The notes under the pieces were generated by a model that saw only the letters and a list, made by a program, of their open reading frames with translations, was not told the DNA's origin and did not search any database. A program made the translations under genes and the position numbers. Shown in pieces: positions 10,201 through 41,779 of a stretch of DNA of 43,562 nt; position 1 is the stretch's first letter; every line of letters starts with the position of its first letter. Origin of the DNA: a virus (lineage: Duplodnaviria > Caudoviricetes); IMG/VR virus record IMGVR_UViG_3300030207_001021, positions 1-43,562 of that record; one strand, given 5' to 3'.

Positions 10201-13200
10201 CCAGTTATACCAAAATCTGTATCTACTAAAACATCAGGAGAGTCAATAGTATACACATTGCATTTACCATCATCAAATCTAGCTTTATTGTTTTGACCCA
10301 CTTCTGTCCACAAAGGAAACGTAGTGTTTCCATATCTATTTAAAAGACCATGGTCTCCCACTTCAGCATGGTCAGAATATTTTATAGCCCTTCTTAATAT
10401 ACCTGAAGTAAGTATAGTTCTATTTTGCATGTCTCTTGGCACCCTAACTATAGCATATCCTGCTATTTTAGATACTGTTTTTTTAGTTAACTTTACTTCA
10501 AAGTATGGATGTAGTATACATCCCTTTAATCTACCGTCTTGATTGTCATAAGGCTTACTACTAAAATTATGCTCAAAGCCTTGGTCTTTTGGGTCTCTTG
10601 CTGTTTGAAAAAAATATGGCCACTCATGATTAAATCCTTGTATTTGTCCATTTGCCCCATAATAAGGCACAAGATGTTCAGTGCTATGCTCAGGCATTCT
10701 TATATCTCCTATTCTTTTTACAAACATAGGTGAGCCATTTTTATCATAAAAAACTATACCAAACCTATATATCTCACCTCTTCTATAACCAACATAATTA
10801 GAGTTATACACAGGGTTAGCGTATGTATCATAAAAATTATTGATTCCTGCAGAAACAGAATAATATTGACCTTGTGCAAAATATTGAGTAACCGCTTGCG
10901 TTTCTATTAATTTAGCATTGTTATCTATTTCTAAAGGTTTTGCTAGAACGTTAGGGTGTACCTGTGGTGTTTGGTTATTTAAAACTCTAAACGTTACTCT
11001 TACACCTTCGTATTCTCCTGCACTTTCAGAATCTTCAGGTAAAGGTGTATTAAAATATTTACTTTCTGCTCCAAATATACCCCTTCTTACATTGTTTCCA
11101 GGCTGCATTCCTTTTACAGTTCCTGTATAAAGAGCAGTAAGTGGGTCTGGGGTGTCGCCTACCATTTTTTGTACATACCTGTAATAGTCACCTACATCTA
11201 TTCCATCTTTTATATTTCCCTGTTTAGTGTAAGCTCCATCAGCATTATTGGCTGGGTTGCATAAAATATTTTGTTCGTCAGTAAATTTTATACCACCCAT
11301 AGAATACAACATGTCGTGATATAAATCTGGGTTTCTTACAGAATCGTGTGGTTGATTACTACTGTTGTATGAACGTACTGTAAAGTCTGTATCTATGTCA
11401 CCAAAACTAGTTCTTAAATTACCACAAAACAATCTATTATCTTTAGTTTGCATTGCTTGACAAATGTCCCAAGAAATTTGATTGTTATTATATTCAGGTG
11501 TAGTTATTTCTTCTATAGGTGCCTCCGCTCCTGTGTGTATCCAAAATAAATCATTTGCTTCATTATTAGTTTTTGGTATTTCATATTCTGAAAATACTAC
11601 AGAGGGGCCCGCAGGAGAGCCGTCCATATATGGAGTGTATATCATTTGTATATGAGAGTACCTATTATCTAAACCTACTAATACGCCTTCTATAGATTTA
11701 TTTGTAGTTCCCTCTACACCACTCTCTCTTCCTTGTTGAGCAGGAGATACTATATTTTTATTTGTAACAGGAACAGAAGCAGGGTTGCTAGGTGGTGATA
11801 TTCTTGACACTCTACCGTCAACAGTTTTATATCTATAAGAATATGCATAGGCTATAGAGTCTAAAGAACCACCTTCTCTAAAACCAGTTACATGCACTGG
11901 TGCAAATACAGAAGGACTAAATAAATTAAAGTATTCTGTCATTCCTGCATATGGAGTATATATAATAGGGTTTAATCCTACATTAAGAGTTTTTAATGGA
12001 AACGTCCCATCAGTAAAATATATTCTTCTTAACTCTTCGCTTTCTTCAGAACCTTCTACTTTTAATTTTTTTCTATTAGTAAATTGTAAATCTGCTATTA
12101 AATAAACAGAATATAAAGAAGATTGTAAATCTTCAAATGTTATAAAGTCTCCTGATATAGCATCTATTCCATTTGTGTTTAAGCTACCATTAGGTGATTG
12201 TTTTACTTTTACAACTACATCTTCTTTTATTACTAAATTTTCTAAAGCATTAGGGTCCTCTCCAGTTTGTACTAATTGTTGAGCTGTTAAAAATTGAACA
12301 ATACCTTGTAAAGGCCATTTTCCTAAAATAACTAGATAATCAGAAAAACTAAAAGTTCCTAAAATTTGTATAGAACCCTGAGAGGGTTGAAAATCATAGC
12401 CATATTCCTCTGCTAAAGAAGCGGCTTCTTGTTCTAACTCTCCTAAGTTTGTTAATTCTGTATCTACATTTAAAATTGTATTAGTAACAGCTATTTCTCC
12501 TACACCGCTATAATATTCAGAAATTTGCGCAGTAATAAAATTAACAAGCGCTTGAACTAATTGTGCTCCTCCAGGCCATCCTTGTGGAGTTTCAAATTCT
12601 GTGTTTACAAAGTTTTGTAATTGACCTGAAAAAAATACTACATCTGCTGCCCCTTCTGCTACTACTGTTATATTAGTAATATAATTTTCATTAGATGGGT
12701 CTGTATTAAAAAAAGTCCAGTTACAGTTATCACCCTCTACTCCTATATCTGTAACATTATGAACAACTGTTGCTACATAAGAATTGTCCATATTAGTTAT
12801 TGCATCAGCCACAACAGTATCTACATCAAATGCAACTCCAGAATATTGTGCTAACTCATAATCTTCTGATATGTTTAAATTATTAATTTCTATAGTAGTA
12901 CCAGTATTTTCTGTTAAAGTTATAGTTAGCGTAAGTGGATTATCTTCACTTGTGGGGTTGTATTCTGTAAAATTACCTTGAATTTGAATATCAGCAAATG
13001 GTTGAAATATAGGATACATAGGGTTAGGCGCACCACTTTCTAAAGTTGGACTTATATTAAAACCTTGCACTTCAAGAATATAACCTATGCTGCCTGTTTG
13101 GTAAGTAGATTGAAAATTAACATCTGCATCTTGAATGGCTGTCATCTCAACCCATTCATTTGTATAAGATAAAGCTGGAGCACCTGAAACATTACTAGCC

Positions 13201-27825: not shown

Positions 27826-28575
27826 TTATGTTAAGTTTCTTGTTATTGTTACACGAGCTCCGTGTATTTCATCACTACTTCCGTCTGATGTTACCCTTAT
27901 TATCATATAGTTATCATCGTTAGTTACTAATGGAGTTGCTAAAGTAACTGTACTCTCTATAGCTGTAGCACCCGTTCCTATATCAGCAATAGTTTTACTT
28001 AACACACTTGCTGAATACACATAAAAATTTTGACCAGTATCGCTACCATATACAGAAACTTGTGTTGCTTTAAAGCCACTTGGTATAGCCACAGAGGCAT
28101 ACATATCATTTGCCCCATTAGTAAATAAAAACAACTCATTACTACCTATACTAGCATCATTTGTCATTAAAGGAAACGCATTGTCAGCAGCTACAAAATC
28201 TCTAGGAAGTATTTTTATAAGAGAATTGTGACCATTATGCCCTATGGAATAATCAAAGCTTGATGATGATGTGTTAGCTACAGCAGTTATATTAGAATCT
28301 AAATATATACTATTTGCGTCATCAGCTACTACAATCATAGCATTTTCCGATGTTAACAATGCATCATATATTGAACTTAAAACTTCTTTATGTTTATTAG
28401 CTCCTATAGTTAAATTAATTATAGCTGCATTTGTTCCAGGTCTATCAGTTCCTACTATGCCTTTAAAAAATAATCTTAAATTAGTATCACTTGTGGGAAA
28501 GCCACCTAAAAAAGCGCTTTCTAAATACATTGCAGTATTGTTACTAGAATCAAGACCAAAAAATAAATAATTCAT
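27826..28575 (-). CDS. Putative virion protein: paralog-family N-terminal domain plus beta-rich C-terminal domain
   Basis: FLGGFPTSDTNLRLFFK...INLTIGANKHKEV..SI...MIVVADD; C-terminal IKILPRDF...IPSGFKAT.V.VYG...IHGARVTI. Confidence 0.55.
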   Translation of the reverse strand: MNYLFFGLDSSNNTAMYLESAFLGGFPTSDTNLRLFFKGIVGTDRPGTNAAIINLTIGANKHKEVLSSIYDALLTSENAMIVVADDANSIYLDSNITAVANTSSSSFDYSIGHNGHNSLIKILPRDFVAADNAFPLMTNDASIGSNELFLFTNGANDMYASVAIPSGFKATQVSVYGSDTGQNFYVYSASVLSKTIADIGTGATAIESTVTLATPLVTNDDNYMIIRVTSDGSSDEIHGARVTITRNLT

Positions 28576-28919
28576 CCTTCGTCTATATTAATTTGTAAAA
28601 CCGAACTTATATTATTATCTACCTTATCTCCAGTAACAGCATCAAAGACAGTTACAATAGACTCTTCCCCAGTGTTTACCTCTCTAACTATAGACTCCAT
28701 AATCGTCTTGCCTGTTCCACTAGATACATATAATACAACATTATTAGAATTAACATTAAACTCTTCTGGAAAATCTATTAAATGTTTGAAGTAAAATATA
28801 ACAAAATTGGTTGTGCTTGTTATTGAATGAACTCTATCTACAGGAAGTATTAACGAATTGTCATTATCGTCATCAGCTGTAAGCGTAGAACTTTTTCTAA
28901 AATAGAAACTTTTATTCAT
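28572..28919 (-). CDS. Putative virion protein (5-paralog family); first gene of the minus-strand arm
   Basis: MNKSFYFR...SLILPVDR...IFYFK...VVLYVSSG; ATGA overlap with the next gene. Confidence 0.55.
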   Translation of the reverse strand: MNKSFYFRKSSTLTADDDNDNSLILPVDRVHSITSTTNFVIFYFKHLIDFPEEFNVNSNNVVLYVSSGTGKTIMESIVREVNTGEESIVTVFDAVTGDKVDNNISSVLQINIDEG

Positions 28920-28923
28920 ACAG

Positions 28924-28931
28924 CAAAGCTA
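28924..28931 (-). promoter_or_regulatory. Bacteroidota -7 box, probable leaderless promoter
   Basis: TAGCTTTG-CTGT-ATG. Confidence 0.55.
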
Positions 28932-29688
28932 CAAAAAAAAATTTTTTATTTTTTCAAGTGAATGAACGTTATTACGTACATACCCCTACGGGTAGCTGTT
29001 TTATAAACACCCCCCTTGTAGTTTGTAACCCAAATATCCTACAGATATTTTGTGCTACCAGCCGCTCGCTTGCTTCTGTAACCGCAAGCTCTCCCTTACA
29101 ACTGTGTCTGCACAAAATTATTGTGTTCGCTACGCTCACAATCTTTGATGGACACAGGTTGTAGTACTATTGTTATAAATATTTGTGTACGTACAAGTGT
29201 GTGATACACTATTTCACTACGTTATTGTGGTATCTGTATTTTGGTTGTGTTATATTGTATTGTTACGAGTGTAACTATTTAGATGATTTGTGTGGTATGT
29301 CTGTACTACTTACCACTTACCCACCAAAGTTACAAAAAATATTTGACATTGTCAAGTGGTATTGTTATGTTATTTTCAACAGGTATACTATTTGTATGTT
29401 TCGTGTTGTATCACTATCATGTGTATTTTTTTTGTTTTGTTCTATTGTTATATTATGGGATTCTAACAGTAGCCCTGCGAACAACTGTTGCACGAAAGCC
29501 ATCGTGGATAAGGAAAACGGCATTTATTATTTTAGAGAGGACTTCGGTCCTCTTTTTTTTGTTGTTACATATTGTATAACTATAATAGAGTGTTTCGCTG
29601 GGTTGCCAGTATTTAAGCTACAATGCTTGTCTGTTATAGTTATACTTTTTTTTGTTTTGCTATATTGTTTAACTAAAATTATATTACA
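28932..29688. other. Divergent non-coding control region (candidate origin or genome-end region)
   Basis: Coding strand switches here; only implausible Cys/Tyr/Phe-rich ORFs; contains hairpins and repeated motifs. Confidence 0.55.
29536..29560 (+). terminator. Rho-independent terminator
   Basis: AGAGGAC-TTCG-GTCCTCT followed by a T-run. Confidence 0.8.
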
Positions 29689-29997
29689 ATGGATTTATTA
29701 CAGATTATTACAGGTTTACTTTGCGTTGGTACTATTGTTTACTTAGTTTATCAAATCAAAGAATTATATCACGCGTTTCAAGATTCTGATGACTTCAAAG
29801 ATTTTCTTGCAAACAATGAATATCATAAAGAAAGATTACTTAAAAAATGTCACGAACTTACTGATAGAAATAGTAAACTAATAAAAGAAAATCAAAAACT
29901 TAAAGATGAAAATCGTAAACTTAAAGAAAAATTAACAGAAGCTTACGACCAATTAACAGACGCTTACGAACAATTTATGACAGACGGACATGCGTAA
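29689..29997 (+). CDS. Membrane-anchored coiled-coil protein
   Basis: N-terminal hydrophobic helix followed by heptad repeats (LIKENQKLKDENRKLKEKL). Confidence 0.7.
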   Translation: MDLLQIITGLLCVGTIVYLVYQIKELYHAFQDSDDFKDFLANNEYHKERLLKKCHELTDRNSKLIKENQKLKDENRKLKEKLTEAYDQLTDAYEQFMTDGHA

Positions 29998-30003
29998 TAT
30001 ACT

Positions 30004-30030
30004 AAAGGGTACATATAGTGTGCCCTTTTT
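30004..30030 (+). terminator. Rho-independent terminator
   Basis: AAAGGGTACA-TATAG-TGTGCCCTTT followed by T's. Confidence 0.75.
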
Positions 30031-30258
30031 CTTTGTTCACTATCATGCATATACGCAGTACTATTATTGTTTTTTTGTTTTGGCTTGTTGTGACTTTGGT
30101 TGTCGGGGGTAGTGCTATACTTACATTCTCACGGTTTTGGTGTTCGTACTTTGATACAGACCCAGCATATGTGCAGAGCCCCCAATCAAATCATCAAAAG
30201 GTAAACGATATATCACCTCAGTATTAGAAAGTATATATCTAAATTAAATTATATTATC

Positions 30259-30819
30259 GTGGAAACACTAAAAAATCTTACTAAATCTTTATCTAATGTT
30301 ACAGATGAATTATCAATCAATTACTTAGATAAATCACCAGGTGTCAAAAAGGGCACATTGTTATCTGTTCAACCTTCTTTCAAATATGTAATGAAAGGTG
30401 GCGAAGCAGCTAAACCATTTACGGCAGAGGATATTACACTTATTCAAAGACGTAAAATCAACAATGAATGGCAAGACGTTGAGTTAGATTGCTTCGCAAT
30501 CAACATCAAAGCAGAAAAACAGAATGACAACAGACTTACATATTACACAATGTTATTTAGAAACATGACTTCTCAAGACTTTGTGAACGAAATCAACGAG
30601 TCTGCATCTTCAGGTACTGCATTAGTCAAAGCTAAACCATTGTATTCTATCATTATAAATAACAAAATGACTATCTCAAATTTCTTTCAAGAGTTATCAA
30701 AAGGCAAATCAATTACATTTGCACAATACAAAAGAGATAACGGACAAATTAATTTTGTAGACGCTAATTATTATAATGATAAAATTGCTCCTAAAACATC
30801 TGAAGAATTACCTGCGTAA
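30259..30819 (+). CDS. Hypothetical early protein (GTG start)
   Basis: 186-aa ORF with an AT-rich leader and normal protein composition. Confidence 0.7.
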   Translation: METLKNLTKSLSNVTDELSINYLDKSPGVKKGTLLSVQPSFKYVMKGGEAAKPFTAEDITLIQRRKINNEWQDVELDCFAINIKAEKQNDNRLTYYTMLFRNMTSQDFVNEINESASSGTALVKAKPLYSIIINNKMTISNFFQELSKGKSITFAQYKRDNGQINFVDANYYNDKIAPKTSEELPA

Positions 30820-30908
30820 TGAATCGAGATGATATTTATGGGGCTGTATTTATTAGTATTGTACTTGCGTTCTACGCAGGACTAGTAATTACTTTATTTA
30901 CTATTTAG
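30819..30908 (+). CDS. 29-aa single-pass membrane peptide
   Basis: TAATG overlap; MNRDDIYGAVFISIVLAFYAGLVITLFTI*; directly followed by a terminator. Confidence 0.55.
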   Translation: MNRDDIYGAVFISIVLAFYAGLVITLFTI

Positions 30909-30914
30909 TTTAAC

Positions 30915-30959
30915 AATAAGGGGAACTTCTATTAATTTAGTTGTTCCCTTTATTTTTTT
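30915..30959 (+). terminator. Rho-independent terminator
   Basis: AATAAGGGGAAC...GTTCCCTTTATT followed by a T-run. Confidence 0.7.
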
Positions 30960-31115
30960 ATATGGTGTTCACTTCGTTCACGTTTGTTTCACGGGGTGCT
31001 ACCCTCGCGGGGCGTTCACTATCATCATGCGCGGTAGCGATTACTCTCAAAATGCACGGTAGTTTCTTTTTTTGTTTTGCTTTTTGGTTTCGTTTTGTTT
31101 AACTAAATTTATGCT

Positions 31116-31313
31116 ATGAAAGAAATATACGCTATAATACAATCTACTGACAACAATAGTCACAGTAAAGAACAATTAGTTGACAACACGCTTTATGAAA
31201 ACTTTAGTGAAGCGTTAGAACAACTTGAACTAATATATGATACAGTTGATATGGAAGAGAATGATGACTATATACAAATATCATACCACATAGCTACATA
31301 TAATTTAGTTTAA
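31116..31313 (+). CDS. Small acidic hypothetical protein
   Basis: 65 aa, D/E-rich; leader resembles that of 29689. Confidence 0.65.
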   Translation: MKEIYAIIQSTDNNSHSKEQLVDNTLYENFSEALEQLELIYDTVDMEENDDYIQISYHIATYNLV

Positions 31314-31315
31314 CA

Positions 31316-31720
31316 ACAGGGTGGACTTTACCGTAAGGTGGTCAAGGCATGATTGAAGCCTATCATACACCCTGTAACTTACACAGGGTCGCCTTAGCCG
31401 TAAGGTCTGGCAAAAAATGTTATTGTTTCAGATTTTCATTCAATAGCATTAACTGTAAACAGGCCCTGTAACTTATAAAGAAAGCATTACCTCTTAGCGA
31501 TAAATAGTATCACCTCAAAGATTCTTGCGAGTCCGTTAAAATTGATTTTTCATTGATACTACGCCGTAATAGAGGTATGCCTTCTTTTACCTTATAAGAT
31601 AAGACTATTAGGCTACAGATTAAAATGTTGTTTACCGTGAATTGCTTAGACTATTCATTAAAATCGGAACTGACCAGAACAACACAAATATCTGTAGCCA
31701 ATGTCTTATTATTTTTTTTT
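31316..31720 (+). ncRNA. Array of four tandem structured RNA elements ending in a U-tract
   Basis: Closing stems: 31316-23/31368-75, 31383-90/31462-69, 31477-94/31571-87, 31599-620/31690-709. Internal hairpins, G-U pairs favouring the + strand, no ORF. Confidence 0.7.
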
Positions 31721-31746
31721 ACTAATTACTAATTAATACTTATAAC

Positions 31747-32085
31747 ATGAAAAAATTACTTAATTCTATTAATTTATTGGTAGCTGATTATCTTTCAGGT
31801 AAAGATAAAGTTATCATACCTAAATCAGAACTTACTTTGTTTGTTAAACAATGTGAAGATGATTTAAATGCTTTAAAATATGAAATTCAACACATATCCG
31901 TAGACGGTAGTTCTATTAGTGGCATGATACAAGACGCAGTTGCAGACGCTATAGATTTTCGAAGTGATGACTTTGAACAGTATATAGAGGGCTGTGGTTC
32001 TTGTGATGAAATGGTCTTAGATTTAAAATCAAGATTAGATAAGTTTAAAACTAAAAACAATTTACATGAAAATACTAGTAAATAA
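31747..32085 (+). CDS. Hypothetical protein
   Basis: 112-aa ORF with ATG AAA AAA TTA start. Confidence 0.65.
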   Translation: MKKLLNSINLLVADYLSGKDKVIIPKSELTLFVKQCEDDLNALKYEIQHISVDGSSISGMIQDAVADAIDFRSDDFEQYIEGCGSCDEMVLDLKSRLDKFKTKNNLHENTSK

Positions 32086-32305
32086 TCAAGAAGTTGACAT
32101 AGCTACATTGTCTTTGGAAGAAGTACATAACTGGGACTTTCCAGAATTTTCTGATGCGTTTGTTTCATCAGGTAAGTTTAAAAATGGTAAACCACTGAAC
32201 GGCAGTGACTTACAAGAATTAGAAAAAACTTATCCTGACCTTATAAATCAATTAGCAATAGAAAATTATTGGAATGGATACTCTGATAAATACCATAAAA
32301 ATTAA
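32066..32305 (+). CDS. Hypothetical phage protein
   Basis: 79 aa; D(F/Y)P.F.DA.......G..L...L pattern seen in small phage proteins. Confidence 0.65.
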   Translation: MKILVNNQEVDIATLSLEEVHNWDFPEFSDAFVSSGKFKNGKPLNGSDLQELEKTYPDLINQLAIENYWNGYSDKYHKN

Positions 32306-32307
32306 AT

Positions 32308-32382
32308 ATGAATAAATACGTAGAAAATGGATACATAATAGTAATAATATTTGTTACACTTGTTATGATATCTGGATGTTAA
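32308..32382 (+). CDS. 24-aa hydrophobic micropeptide ending in a lipobox-like ISGC
   Basis: MNKYVENGYIIVIIFVTLVMISGC*; starts 2 nt after the previous stop. Confidence 0.45.
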   Translation: MNKYVENGYIIVIIFVTLVMISGC

Positions 32383-32397
32383 AATAAATATAAAATT

Positions 32398-32574
32398 ATG
32401 AAAAAATTAATTATGACTCAAAAGGGTTTATCTTCTTCTGTTGTAGAATTAAGTACAAAAGAATTAAAATATATTATAGGACTTATTGAAACTGATTTAG
32501 AATATCCGTATGATACTAAAACATTTTTGGTTTTCAATCTTTTATATAAGAAGTTATTAAAATTAAATAAATAA
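32398..32574 (+). CDS. Small hypothetical protein (58 aa)
   Basis: MKKLIMTQKGLSSSVVELSTKELKYIIGLIETDLEY...; A-rich leader. Confidence 0.55.
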   Translation: MKKLIMTQKGLSSSVVELSTKELKYIIGLIETDLEYPYDTKTFLVFNLLYKKLLKLNK

Positions 32575-32578
32575 AATT

Positions 32579-32686
32579 ATGGAAAAATTAAAGAAAGATA
32601 TAAAAAATCAATTAGAAGAATTTAATTTAGGAGGTATTGATGTGTGGGAATTAATTAAAAGAATAGAATTAATAATAAACAAATAA
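32579..32686 (+). CDS. Small hypothetical protein (35 aa)
   Basis: MEKLKKDIKNQLEEFNLGGIDVWELIKRIELIINK*; tightly packed between neighbours. Confidence 0.5.
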   Translation: MEKLKKDIKNQLEEFNLGGIDVWELIKRIELIINK

Positions 32687-32689
32687 AAC

Positions 32690-33226
32690 ATGGAAAAATT
32701 AAAAACAGGAATAATGTCTTATGCATTAAAAGAAATATTAAACCATCCAAGTCAGTTACTTGAAGATAATATTAATCAAAAAGATGTCCAAGAAGCTATT
32801 TATCAATTAGAAGATATGTTTAATGGCAAAGCTTTCCTTAAAAGCAAATCTAAAAATAATAAATATGTAGACAATAATGTACATATTCGTCTTAGAGACA
32901 TAGTAGATTTAATTAAGATGAAGCTAAGGTTAGCAGAGTTTTTTGATTATAATTCTGAACCAATAGTGATTTTGCATAGTAAATCAGGACAAAAAATTAA
33001 CACAAAAGTGTCAATTAATTACCCTTCACCATATGAAGACAATAGTCTTGATAAACAAAGAACTTATGCTTGTTCATATCTTGTTATCTCTTTGATTAAA
33101 ATGTTACTTCCGTATGTTAGTAAAGCAGATTTTGTTGATACTAAAGAATATTTTGAAATGGAAATAAAACGTAGAAATCAATTGGAATTGAAAAAAGAAG
33201 AATTGATAAACGAAGCTGAAGTATGA
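32690..33226 (+). CDS. Hypothetical protein
   Basis: 178-aa ORF directly upstream of the amidotransferase. Confidence 0.65.
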   Translation: MEKLKTGIMSYALKEILNHPSQLLEDNINQKDVQEAIYQLEDMFNGKAFLKSKSKNNKYVDNNVHIRLRDIVDLIKMKLRLAEFFDYNSEPIVILHSKSGQKINTKVSINYPSPYEDNSLDKQRTYACSYLVISLIKMLLPYVSKADFVDTKEYFEMEIKRRNQLELKKEELINEAEV

Positions 33227-33306
33227 TATTAGATGAGTTTGGACCAGGGGGCGTACCTTATGACGCAATTAATGATTATTATTTAACACTTAAAAACGAA
33301 AAAAAA

Positions 33307-34221
33307 ATGTGTGGATTAGTTGGATTTAGTGGTAAAGCTGATACAAGTATATTTAAGGCTTTACATTTACTAGCAGATAACGACGACAGAGGTGGACACT
33401 CTACAGGGTTATATGCAAACAATAAAATATACAAGACAACAGATGAGTCTTTAAACATTCTGCCTATGCTTGATACTAATGTAACAGGCAGTGTTCTAAT
33501 TGGACACACAAGATTCGCCACACATGGTGAACATACTGTAGAAAATGCACATCCTTTTCAATACAAAAACATTATAGGTGCACACAATGGTGTACTAAAC
33601 AATTACAAAGAAGTAGGTGAAAAGTTTGGCATTAAACCAACTACAGTAGACTCTCAAATGATATTTAAATTATTAGCACAAGAAAAAAATGATAAACATC
33701 TAGGCCTTTTTGGAGGTGCAAAGAATGTTATATACACAAAAGGTGATAATAGATTATATGTATATCGTAGAGATAATCCATTGTATGGTGTAGAAACAGA
33801 AGATGGATACTACTTTAGTTCTTTGGAAGAAGGTCTAAAGAATATAGCAGGCAAGAACATAGTAAAAGAAGTTCCTCAGAACAAACTTTACATACTTGAA
33901 AATGGTAAGCTAATCAAAACTATTAAGATTAAGCACAAGCCAGTTCCTGCTAAATCTACTGTTAACACAGATTGGAGAAGCTATGGTAGTTATTCTAATA
34001 AAGATTGGGGTTATTTGGGTGAAATAGATAAAGATGATTATTCTTTTAATGACTACAAACATAATGAATATCAGGAGTTTGAAAAAATGCAAGATTATGC
34101 ATCATTTATTTATGAACTATACAGCGAAGCTCACAAAAGAGGTTTTACAGAAGAAGAATCTGAAAAGCTTCTTGATTTGTATAACCAATTAAACCAATTC
34201 TCTTATGACTACTATTACTAA
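33307..34221 (+). CDS. Class II (Ntn) glutamine amidotransferase
   Basis: MCGLVG start, RG.HSTG, IGHTRFATHG, NAHPF, HNGVL.N and VDS motifs. An in-frame upstream ATG exists at 33223. Confidence 0.9.
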   Translation: MCGLVGFSGKADTSIFKALHLLADNDDRGGHSTGLYANNKIYKTTDESLNILPMLDTNVTGSVLIGHTRFATHGEHTVENAHPFQYKNIIGAHNGVLNNYKEVGEKFGIKPTTVDSQMIFKLLAQEKNDKHLGLFGGAKNVIYTKGDNRLYVYRRDNPLYGVETEDGYYFSSLEEGLKNIAGKNIVKEVPQNKLYILENGKLIKTIKIKHKPVPAKSTVNTDWRSYGSYSNKDWGYLGEIDKDDYSFNDYKHNEYQEFEKMQDYASFIYELYSEAHKRGFTEEESEKLLDLYNQLNQFSYDYYY

Positions 34222-35530
34222 AGTTTGTGAAGAAAGCGGAGGAAGATTTGATGTTAATGAAATGTATCAATTGCATGATGGTAATTATGTACATCCAGAC
34301 TATATAGATGATTATGTTAATATTGACGGAGGTGATATATATATCCATGAGGACGACGCTACAGTATGTGAGTGTAATGGGTTATGGTATCCTAGAGAAA
34401 ATCTTGCAGATTATTATATACAATGGGACCATTGGTCTGAAGTATATAGGTTTGAAGACAACATGTGTTATGGTTGGGTAAGCTCATCTAATGAAGGTTG
34501 GTTTCATAACGAATGTGACTATGCTTATTCAGAAAATAGAGATGAATACTATATGTCTTCTGATATTGCAAGAGATTGTGATATGGATTATTGTGAAAGC
34601 TCAGACGATTGGTTACATGTAGATGACATGCCAAATGGAGAAGAATGGGAAAATCAATTTAGAGTTCCCAGTCTTAAAGAATCTAATACTTTTGACTTGA
34701 CACATGGAATGAAGTATACATTCGGTGTAGAAATAGAAACATGTGACAGTAGTTTAGATTGGTCTGACTTGTCATTAGCTGCAGTTCACGATGGTAGTAT
34801 CAACGGCATGGAGTTTGTCACAGGTGTTCTTCAGGGCGATAAGGGTTTGGATATGTTATCACAGATTTGTACAGAACTAAATGATAATCATTGTTATGTA
34901 GATAAATCTTGTGGACTGCATGTTCATATTGGTGGAGCTACTTTTAACAGGAAGTTTTCTATCCTAGCCATTATGCTAGGCCAAATGCTTCAAGATGAAA
35001 TATATACAATGCTACCACCATCGAGGCTAACAGGTTCCTATTGTTACAAAATCAAAGACAAATACAAAGACATAAAATATGTAAGTAAAAAACTATATCC
35101 TAGAACATACTCTAGGCAACTTAAGTTACTAGCAGAATATGTCAATGTGGATAGTTCAGAATTTGATTCAGCAAACAATAAGAATACGCCACATCCTTAT
35201 GGTAGATATCATAGTTCAAGATATACATGGTTAAATCTTAACAATTGTAGTTACAAATATTCACCTGATACTGTAGAGTTTAGGTGTCATAGTGGTACTA
35301 CAAGTTATATTAAAATGTATAATTGGATTTTGATATGTATGTGCTTTGTTAGGTATATAGAAAACCATCCAAGAGACATTGTGGAATCTTTTAAACATTA
35401 TGTTAGCAAATATCCTGAGCCTTGTATACTATTGCGTGATATAGTATCTACAGGGATTCAAGATACTGATAAAGCTATAGAGCTTTTAGGGTACATAGAT
35501 AAAAGAAAAGATAAGTTTACACAAAGTTAA
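34205..35530 (+). CDS. Putative amidoligase (COOH-NH2 ligase, glutamine-synthetase/GCS fold) with acidic Cys/aromatic N-terminal repeats
   Basis: FGVEIE, DGSI..MEFVT, SCGLHVHIG, RY..LN and TVEFR..SGT motifs. Confidence 0.85.
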   Translation: MTTITKVCEESGGRFDVNEMYQLHDGNYVHPDYIDDYVNIDGGDIYIHEDDATVCECNGLWYPRENLADYYIQWDHWSEVYRFEDNMCYGWVSSSNEGWFHNECDYAYSENRDEYYMSSDIARDCDMDYCESSDDWLHVDDMPNGEEWENQFRVPSLKESNTFDLTHGMKYTFGVEIETCDSSLDWSDLSLAAVHDGSINGMEFVTGVLQGDKGLDMLSQICTELNDNHCYVDKSCGLHVHIGGATFNRKFSILAIMLGQMLQDEIYTMLPPSRLTGSYCYKIKDKYKDIKYVSKKLYPRTYSRQLKLLAEYVNVDSSEFDSANNKNTPHPYGRYHSSRYTWLNLNNCSYKYSPDTVEFRCHSGTTSYIKMYNWILICMCFVRYIENHPRDIVESFKHYVSKYPEPCILLRDIVSTGIQDTDKAIELLGYIDKRKDKFTQS

Positions 35531-35545
35531 TCGCTACTCATTAAC

Positions 35546-35749
35546 AGAAAGGTGTGTGGTAATAGTTATTAATTATTCTCCGTAACTATGCCCGTGATTG
35601 AACCATGCACCTTTCTTAATATTAAGAGGTTTACCAATAATTACCAGGACAATGACATGTAGTTATTAGGATAATACAAAACTTTAGTTAATAAAGTTTC
35701 TTCTAGACGCTGTTAATCCTGGTCCCTCTTAATGTTAATAACTTTTTTT
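35546..35749 (+). ncRNA. Two tandem structured RNA elements ending in a U-tract
   Basis: AGAAAGGTGTGTGGT (35546-60) / ACCATGCACCTTTCT (35602-16); TAATATTAAGAGG (35617-29) / CCTCTTAATGTTA (35725-37), with inner ACCAGGA/TCCTGGT. Confidence 0.65.
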
Positions 35750-35778
35750 GACTATTAACAATTATTAAATTAAATTTG
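35747..35778 (+). promoter_or_regulatory. Bacteroidota housekeeping promoter for the replication genes
   Basis: TTTG (35747-50) - 20 nt - TAAATTTG (35771-78); canonical -33/-7 spacing. Confidence 0.65.
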
Positions 35779-41428: not shown

Positions 41429-41779
41429 ATGGAATTAGTTTTTGTTTACGGAACATTAAGAAAGGGGCATGGTAATCATGTCCTTTTAAAAAACTCTGAA
41501 TTTGTAGACGCAGGTCTTACTAAAAAAAAGTATGCCATGTATGCAAATGGAATACCTTTTGTCAGTGATGATGAAGAGGTGTCAAGTATATTTGGAGAGT
41601 TATATAAGGTATCAAGTCATACACTTCGTATGATAGATTTATTAGAAGGTCACCCTGGTTGGTATGAAAGAAAAAAAATAACTGTGATTGGTGGTAAGAA
41701 AAGATATAAAGCGTGGTTATATTTTAACAATGCTAAAGAGGGACATCTAGTAGAATCTGGTGACTACGAAAGAAGGTGA
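41429..41779 (+). CDS. Gamma-glutamylcyclotransferase (AIG2/YtfP-like)
   Basis: VFVYGTLRKG..NH, GELY.V, D.LEGHP..Y.R and AW.Y motifs. Confidence 0.9.
   Translation: MELVFVYGTLRKGHGNHVLLKNSEFVDAGLTKKKYAMYANGIPFVSDDEEVSSIFGELYKVSSHTLRMIDLLEGHPGWYERKKITVIGGKKRYKAWLYFNNAKEGHLVESGDYERR

Follow-up and report, generated by a model that had tools for sequence, protein, structure and literature searches.

Introduction

The known cases of RNA-based counter-defence in phages are single mimics, either of a CRISPR guide or of an antitoxin. Several described systems resemble the locus that we report. The pseudo-ToxI of PhiTE mimics a host RNA and, like our locus, comes from a non-coding phage region that recombination and expansion alter; it is, however, a series of like repeats beside a known host antitoxin, whereas the folds found here are mostly unrelated (PMC3475682). 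Racrs (PMC10651486), vsgRNAs (10.64898/2026.06.01.729453) and rAcrIIA1 (10.64898/2026.06.03.729762) are likewise structured phage RNAs of 60–110 nt set among small accessory ORFs. As described in those accounts, most of their length can be aligned with the host's repeat or tracrRNA, whereas at our locus the shared stretch is at most an 11-mer, seen in 2 of 16 variants of one unit (U4). The PeSL cassettes of T4-type phages also combine conserved structured elements with a variable region and recombinational shuffling, but a PeSL is a promoter plus a terminator between ORFs, whereas here one promoter-like motif precedes several folds, free of ORFs, which themselves make up the cargo (PMC2839356). 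The cyanophage manA and wcaG motifs show that structured RNAs occur in marine phages; they are Rfam families in likely 5′ UTRs, and neither matched our array (PMC2864571). Finally, T4 RNAC and RNAD are small RNAs, of unknown role, that a phage makes from non-coding DNA; they lie in a tRNA region, whereas our locus has no tRNAs and holds at least six swapped cassette types (PMC3014915).

The window – the whole 43,562-nt stretch analysed, IMG/VR record IMGVR_UViG_3300030207_001021 – is a 43.6-kb phage fragment with an estimated completeness of 68%. It carries crAss-type genes (portal, terminase, capsid, muzzle) and encodes a DnaB/Sak4/NinB/RusA/exonuclease module. Among cultured phages the best matches to its capsid are Flavobacterium phages (24%), and the best six matches to its DnaB in a plasmid collection are all from Bacteroidota; from these two comparisons we infer a Bacteroidota host. 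An amidotransferase-profile search of GTDB genomes returned three distant loci only, with no host clue, and several relatives of the phage come from marine-labelled contigs.

Results

Four folded units in one array

An initial annotation of the window had claimed four self-contained folds, three linkers and a closing T9 tract, and all were recovered in place on the + strand. Unit 1 (31316..31375), designated type A, is a three-way junction with closing helix ACAGGGU/ACCCUGU, a GAC..CC-GUAA-GG..GUC arm and a variable third arm. The linker AACTTAC (31376..31382) separates it from its type A paralogue, unit 2 (31383..31469), and a second linker, AACTTAT (31470..31476), leads to unit 3 (31477..31587), a bulged rod of type B with a conserved head and, in three relatives, an extra arm. 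After linker TACCTTATAAG (31588..31598; ACCTTA begins at 31589) comes unit 4 (31599..31709), whose 18-bp closing stem covaries and has two single bulges in its 5′ strand; the head on this stem is freely replaced, and the total length is 62–115 nt across relatives. The T9 tract lies at 31712..31720. Units 1 and 2 show the compensatory change ascribed to them, GAC/GTC versus GCC/GGC flanking CC-GTAA-GG.

Folding of 31300–31740 gives −118.3 kcal/mol, with z −6.34 on the + strand and −5.16 on the − strand, and 0 of 100 shuffles are equally stable; no pairing between units is predicted. Unit z-scores (+/−) are −3.2/−2.1, −4.1/−1.6, −3.9/−4.2 and −6.1/−5.9 for U1 to U4, and U4 is the strongest 120-nt tile across 28000–33500 (z −7.4). 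Folding energy upholds the claimed + strand preference for U1 and U2 but, taken alone, not for U3 and U4; the + strand case for the window's U4 comes from changes among homologues, which give G-U pairs, and not from energy. The longest ATG frame inside the four units has 28 codons, and ARAGORN made no tRNA or tmRNA call, as expected from the earlier statement that the units are not tRNAs. The surroundings are not otherwise densely coding, as had been supposed: further gaps lie at 28920–29690 and 30820–31115.

A slot filled by different cassettes

Pattern and protein scans yielded six IMG/VR loci with U4 and 19 metagenome hits. Fourteen of the 19 were kept as clade members, and five (L052, L061, L063, L065, L068) were dropped as chance, having neither the U4 3′ strand nor the anchor genes. 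Counting the window this makes 21 loci with 16 distinct U4 sequences; several of the loci are duplicates, and L056 has the same array as the window. Where the slot is present its order runs from a conserved 186-aa gene without family (in the window 30259..30819, +), the upstream anchor, through a promoter-like motif, TCACTATCA...GCGCGGTAG (31016..31037, +), which heads the array unit, and a leader ORF (65 aa, without family, 31116..31313, +), to between one and four closed-stem cassettes. The leader ORF varies from 35 to 85 aa among loci and other short ORFs substitute for it in relatives; the two ORFs upstream of the array had no named family in the ESM Atlas, and no known anti-defence genes were identified adjoining the slot. 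The gene downstream is not fixed, different ORFs coming after U4, and a glutamine amidotransferase-like gene (33223..34221, +) is the downstream anchor of the variable region.

In the 21 loci (some duplicates), six cassette types are combined in eight arrangements: AABU4 in the window and L005, ABU4 in L004 and L057, AU4 in L006, ACU4 in L007, C-U4-ORF-U5 in L054, D-U4-ORF-U5 in L051, EU4U5 in L015 and L067, and U4U5 in L014 and others. The place of unit 3 is taken in other loci by the unrelated cassettes C (339 nt), D (298 nt) or E (145 nt); U5 measures 75–119 nt, and the ORFs that separate it from U4 in L051 and L054 are about 360–380 nt. Because different genes follow the slot and an ORF is tolerated between U4 and U5, the cassettes look like independent products rather than the leader of one gene. 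The units behave independently across homologues, and a constant closing scaffold with variable heads, as anticipated, is what the homologues display.

Six more distant relatives that share the anchor genes (L016, L018–L022) lack U4; the cassette of L018 has the core of E, and L022 has a different closed fold. This E/F core is almost invariant (cassettes at L015:6398-6542, L067:347-492, L018:6624-6760), though the anchor proteins of those phages are only about 36–42% like the window's. Cassette C (L007:485-823, L054:1651-1989) is of ribozyme size, with several GNRA/UUCG-type loops and no Rfam match. Beyond the clade, blastn against 50,697 phage records gave only chance pieces outside the array core, and models R2 and R3, run over 614 kb, found no host or distant-phage homologues; R2 also found none in five records.

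The two copies of cassette C are identical at 337 of 339 positions (L007 versus L054) and yet stand beside unrelated leader ORFs; cassettes therefore move between lineages. Two copies of cassette E (L015 versus L067) agree at 143 of 146 positions and again have differing leader ORFs. L007 and L057 are 96% identical through the leader and unit A, after which one has C and the other B, with different U4 heads, and the cassette losses in L004 and L006 map to linkers. None of five near-complete relatives encodes a tyrosine integrase (PF00589), and we therefore infer that cassettes are exchanged by homologous recombination at shared flanks.

Evidence for RNA structure

Across the 16 distinct sequences the 18-pair stem of U4 – its 5′ strand, like the type A core, preset by the search patterns, and the structures drawn from the same sequences – is paired in 283 of 288 cells (98.3%). 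There are 12 double-sided changes over three pairs, and 13 of 13 single-sided changes give G-U on the + strand (0 of 500 shuffles, in a test that ignores relatedness among sequences). The five unpaired cells all fall at one position, where a register shift repairs them. The head, by comparison, is swapped wholesale between loci, and in 3 of 16 a 62-nt form carries a small hairpin instead. Among eight distinct type A sequences, GAC/GTC and GCC/GGC occur four times each, and one closing pair varies as U-A, U-G and C-G. Type B is weaker, with four sequences, one covarying pair, one broken pair and no + strand bias, and cassette D folds no better than its shuffles (z +0.1). The + strand folds better in 8/8 sequences of A, 14/16 of U4, 9/9 of U5 and 2/2 of C, but in only 1/4 of B. 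The array cassettes are likely to be RNA-type structures of the + strand.

U5, which is not in the window (L014:6992-7068 and eight other loci), is a covarying three-way junction, with 202 of 202 cells paired and four pairs showing double changes. It has an invariant UAAG/CUAAG internal loop, which we take to resemble the 11-nt tetraloop receptor, and a variable insert that usually bears a palindromic UGCA loop.

Linkers, transcript ends and the promoter-like motif

AACTTA stands 3′ of every A unit and ACCTTA 3′ of every B unit. All three A(A/C)CTTA linkers that had been claimed are present in the window, but they are not kept between other cassette types: the E-U4 and U4-U5 junctions instead read TTTATATAA, TAAACTTTTTA or TACAATATTCAG. 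The linker hexamer is in any case common in the window (45 copies on the + strand). The T9 tract is missing from most relatives, and a terminator scan of the window placed none of its six calls in the array, leaving T9 uncalled. Since linker sequence is not conserved and T9 is missing from most relatives, the linkers may be just AU-rich spacers and crossover points. As AU-rich single strands they would permit cutting by RNase E/Y. A further hairpin absent from the window, U6 (CCAYA-RGUAAG-URUGG; L014:7086-7110, L007:1429-1452, L012:313-337), lies shortly 5′ of terminator-like hairpins and is possibly an antitermination or promoter signal.

The motif TCACTATCA...GCRCGGTA has five copies in the window, all on the + strand, at 29411, 30037, 31016, 36165 and 43533 (0.54 expected; 0 of 100 shuffles). 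Downstream of most of the five, a T-rich tract and GTTTAAC precede a start codon. Relatives hold seven variants of the motif, placed, where present, 190–311 nt upstream of the first cassette. We read it as a putative early promoter, which a virion RNA polymerase might use. Directly 5′ of the copy that heads the array, a hairpin and T-run (30918–30959), missed by the terminator scan, likely ends the preceding transcript.

Comparison with known RNA and DNA families

Infernal comparison with Rfam, which had been proposed as a check, gave no match at gathering score for the window or nine related loci (cmscan, Rfam 15), sub-threshold matches being of the chance kind only (E 0.27–6.2). No near full-length CRISPR repeat match (the Racr criterion) was found: the longest word shared with nine type II-C repeats is 11 nt, which agrees with the earlier assertion that the units are not CRISPR repeats, types other than II-C being covered through Rfam. 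The 11-mer belongs to the head of the window's U4 and is common to Bacteroidota type II-C repeats; against a background of 784 tiles, 14 share at least an 11-mer with such repeats. The units lack the full repeat stem of vsgRNA/rAcrIIA1-type architecture, and no repeat-plus-tracr layout was seen in them. Tandem near-identical repeats of the type III antitoxin kind are likewise absent, only U1 and U2 being paralogous. In a separate set of viral contigs (L092–L147), about 45 of 56 matches to the type II-C repeat motif are single copies and not arrays; some of these may be solitary-repeat, Racr-like units.

Two further motifs were sought in 41 units. The ends of attC sites conform to RYYYAAC...GTTRRRY and the hammerhead core to CUGANGA...GAAA; neither occurs in any of the 41, nor was there an Rfam match to the hammerhead. 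Membership of the PeSLs was rejected, given one promoter-like motif 5′ of the leader ORF and 0 of 6 terminator calls in the array. Cassette C, with 9 GGA words in 339 nt, might be read as CsrB-like, but this was set aside; CsrA is rare in Bacteroidota.

We found no description of these RNAs in the literature searched. Part of the supplements to a survey of viral csRNAs (Fremin 2023, PMC10690425) gave no matches, and the survey's 8,495 unnamed candidates may include U4 or U5. With this large catalogue of phage RNAs compared in part, the cassette RNA families, at least six candidate types, appear to be undescribed.

Likeness to ribosomal RNA

Comparisons were made with rRNA from named records. 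The best match of units 1–2 is to the Bacteroidota 16S helix 45 region, with 22 of 29 positions aligned over the 5′ 29 nt of unit 2; the L007 type A unit gives 27/35 against the same region (0 of 60 shuffles). Model R1, built from phage sequences only, was applied to rRNA loci totalling 83 kb; its top four rows (three operons) were Bacteroidota helix 45, the best at E 0.023 and 17 bits, as against 18 bits for the best non-self match over 362 kb of phage loci. U2-type units score 13–15 against Bacteroidota helix 45, 7 against that of E. coli and at most 11–12 against background (824 tiles), the helix 45 target having been chosen after the matches were known. In type A the 5′ half is aligned and the hairpin register kept, but the loop is GUAA where helix 45 has GGAA, and the 5′ end is locked in the closing helix without an anti-Shine-Dalgarno. 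The significance of this likeness is marginal.

For U4 heads the p values are 0.007 (window versus helix 23), 0.10 (L007 versus helix 24) and 0.34 (L057 versus the 530 loop). Combined over 12 segments, with representatives picked after the matches had been seen, p is 0.078 versus 0.58–0.99 for four controls. The best matches are enriched in invariant 16S columns over shuffles (2 and 3 of 150), and the controls are not (antisense 45 and 11 of 150; non-Bacteroidota 36/150). Two genome-wide tests failed to confirm rRNA mimicry as a general rule: when rRNA profiles were slid along 195 kb of phage loci, the cassette matches to helices 45/23/24/18 fell outside the top 45, and for k-mer sharing with Bacteroidota 16S (k=9), reached in 8 of 500 shuffles, antisense controls did equally well (5 and 19 of 500). 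Of 65 pairwise rRNA tests, five gave p<0.03 and none survived correction. Also rejected were U5 as a copy of 23S domain I (alike in sequence only, with different pairing), U3 as a mimic of 16S helix 21 (no signal versus rRNA) and U4 as a copy of the pre-rRNA stalk (no likeness by eye, six operons).

Discussion

The array in the window is one version of a variable slot whose closed-stem cassettes are gained, lost and exchanged among related phages. That modularity, brought out by the homologues, could not be seen in the initial annotation. As to what the cassettes do, we see an even chance that they are polycistronic small RNAs, likely early, that work in trans by decoying RNA-binding proteins of the host. 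They would be co-transcribed, probably as one early RNA; host RNases would free the units at the AU-rich spacers; the freed RNAs would then engage host RNA-binding proteins; and exchange at shared flanks would proceed by way of the phage's Sak4/NinB/RusA/exonuclease genes. Decoy would be the best role for the cassettes on present analysis, and pseudo-ToxI (PMC3475682) and the vsgRNAs (10.64898/2026.06.01.729453) are precedents for phage RNA mimics. The best lead to a target may be the proteins that recognise the 30S platform and the 16S 3′ end, namely initiation or maturation factors and rRNA-cutting defence nucleases. A more specific proposal – that the slot holds rRNA look-alikes traded as accessory genes, in which units 1–2 copy helix 45, and U4 heads the 690, 790 and 530 loops, to soak up readers of the 30S platform – we regard as doubtful. 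Of the small-RNA model put forward in the initial annotation, + strand structure and the lack of an Rfam family stand; the junctions of other cassettes speak against A(A/C)CTTA as a cut signal, and the antisense and antitoxin roles gained no support.

It is also conceivable, if unlikely, that the cassettes work in cis on the mRNA, as RNase III sites, stabilisers, terminators or antiterminators; they would then tune early genes and, PeSL-like, also serve as recombination anchors. The stem of U4, at roughly 20 bp, with a head that shrinks to a small hairpin in 3/16, would suit such a role, as would the GC-rich stem and T-run that end U5 and the recurrence of GUAA hairpins (U6) 5′ of terminator-like sites. 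However, cassettes of up to 339 nt without a promoter of their own adjoin different genes, inner sequence is kept between distant phages (the E/F core), and several stacked non-coding folds exceed what a cut site needs. That the array stays uncut, as a single RNA of several domains whose interchangeable arms make a scaffold or sponge, seems rather improbable: spacers of only 7–13 nt, a single promoter-like motif and no conserved cut motif are consistent with it, but ORFs of the length given above split U4 from U5 in L051 and L054, and the fold contains no unit-to-unit pairing.

Mimicry of CRISPR guides or type III antitoxins we hold to be quite improbable. Phage sgRNA mimics are known and the 11-mer in the window's U4 head is suggestive, but it occurs in only 2 of 16 U4 variants, and 14 of 784 background tiles share a word at least as long; the units show neither tandem repeats nor a repeat-plus-tracr architecture, and the antitoxin-mimic role once proposed finds no support. 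The idea that the variable loops guide antisense pairing to mRNAs of host or phage, raised at the same time, draws on the combination of constant scaffold and variable heads; those heads are structured, however, and have no match of at least 13 nt elsewhere in the window on either strand (eight 12-mers), so that it, too, is unsupported and highly improbable. Very little probability attaches, lastly, to DNA elements such as attC-like sites, MITEs or hairpin signals in single-stranded DNA. Such elements would fit the inverted repeats at the termini, the gain and loss of cassettes at short direct repeats and the two extrahelical bases of U4; against this stand the G-U-only changes on one strand, the GNRA/UUCG loops, the absence of attC ends and of tyrosine integrase noted above, and termini that are unrelated between types.

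This phage lineage seems to reserve a slot in which unrelated structured RNAs of 60–340 nt are swapped like accessory proteins. With at least six candidate RNA types and natural comparisons of presence and absence, the slot would offer a direct route to the host proteins, RNA-binding or RNA-cutting, that matter in Bacteroidota infection. The rRNA likeness, if true, would be a kind of phage mimicry not found in the literature searched.

Three further features of these phages deserve mention. A near-complete relative encodes a 3,753-aa protein without Pfam match (L157:7420-18681, −) that contains a DMDGD motif, presumably as expected of a virion RNA polymerase; it is a candidate for that enzyme and is missing from the window fragment. 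A conserved non-coding gap lies between the amidoligase and replication-initiator genes (35531–35775 in the window), and in L016, L019, L020 and L021 it holds a G-rich closed fold (about 10295–10385, −), possibly an origin or a further RNA. Genes for the glutamine amidotransferase, an amidoligase and a gamma-glutamyl cyclotransferase (33223–35530 and 41429–41779 of the window) likely form a peptide- or amide-modifying module.
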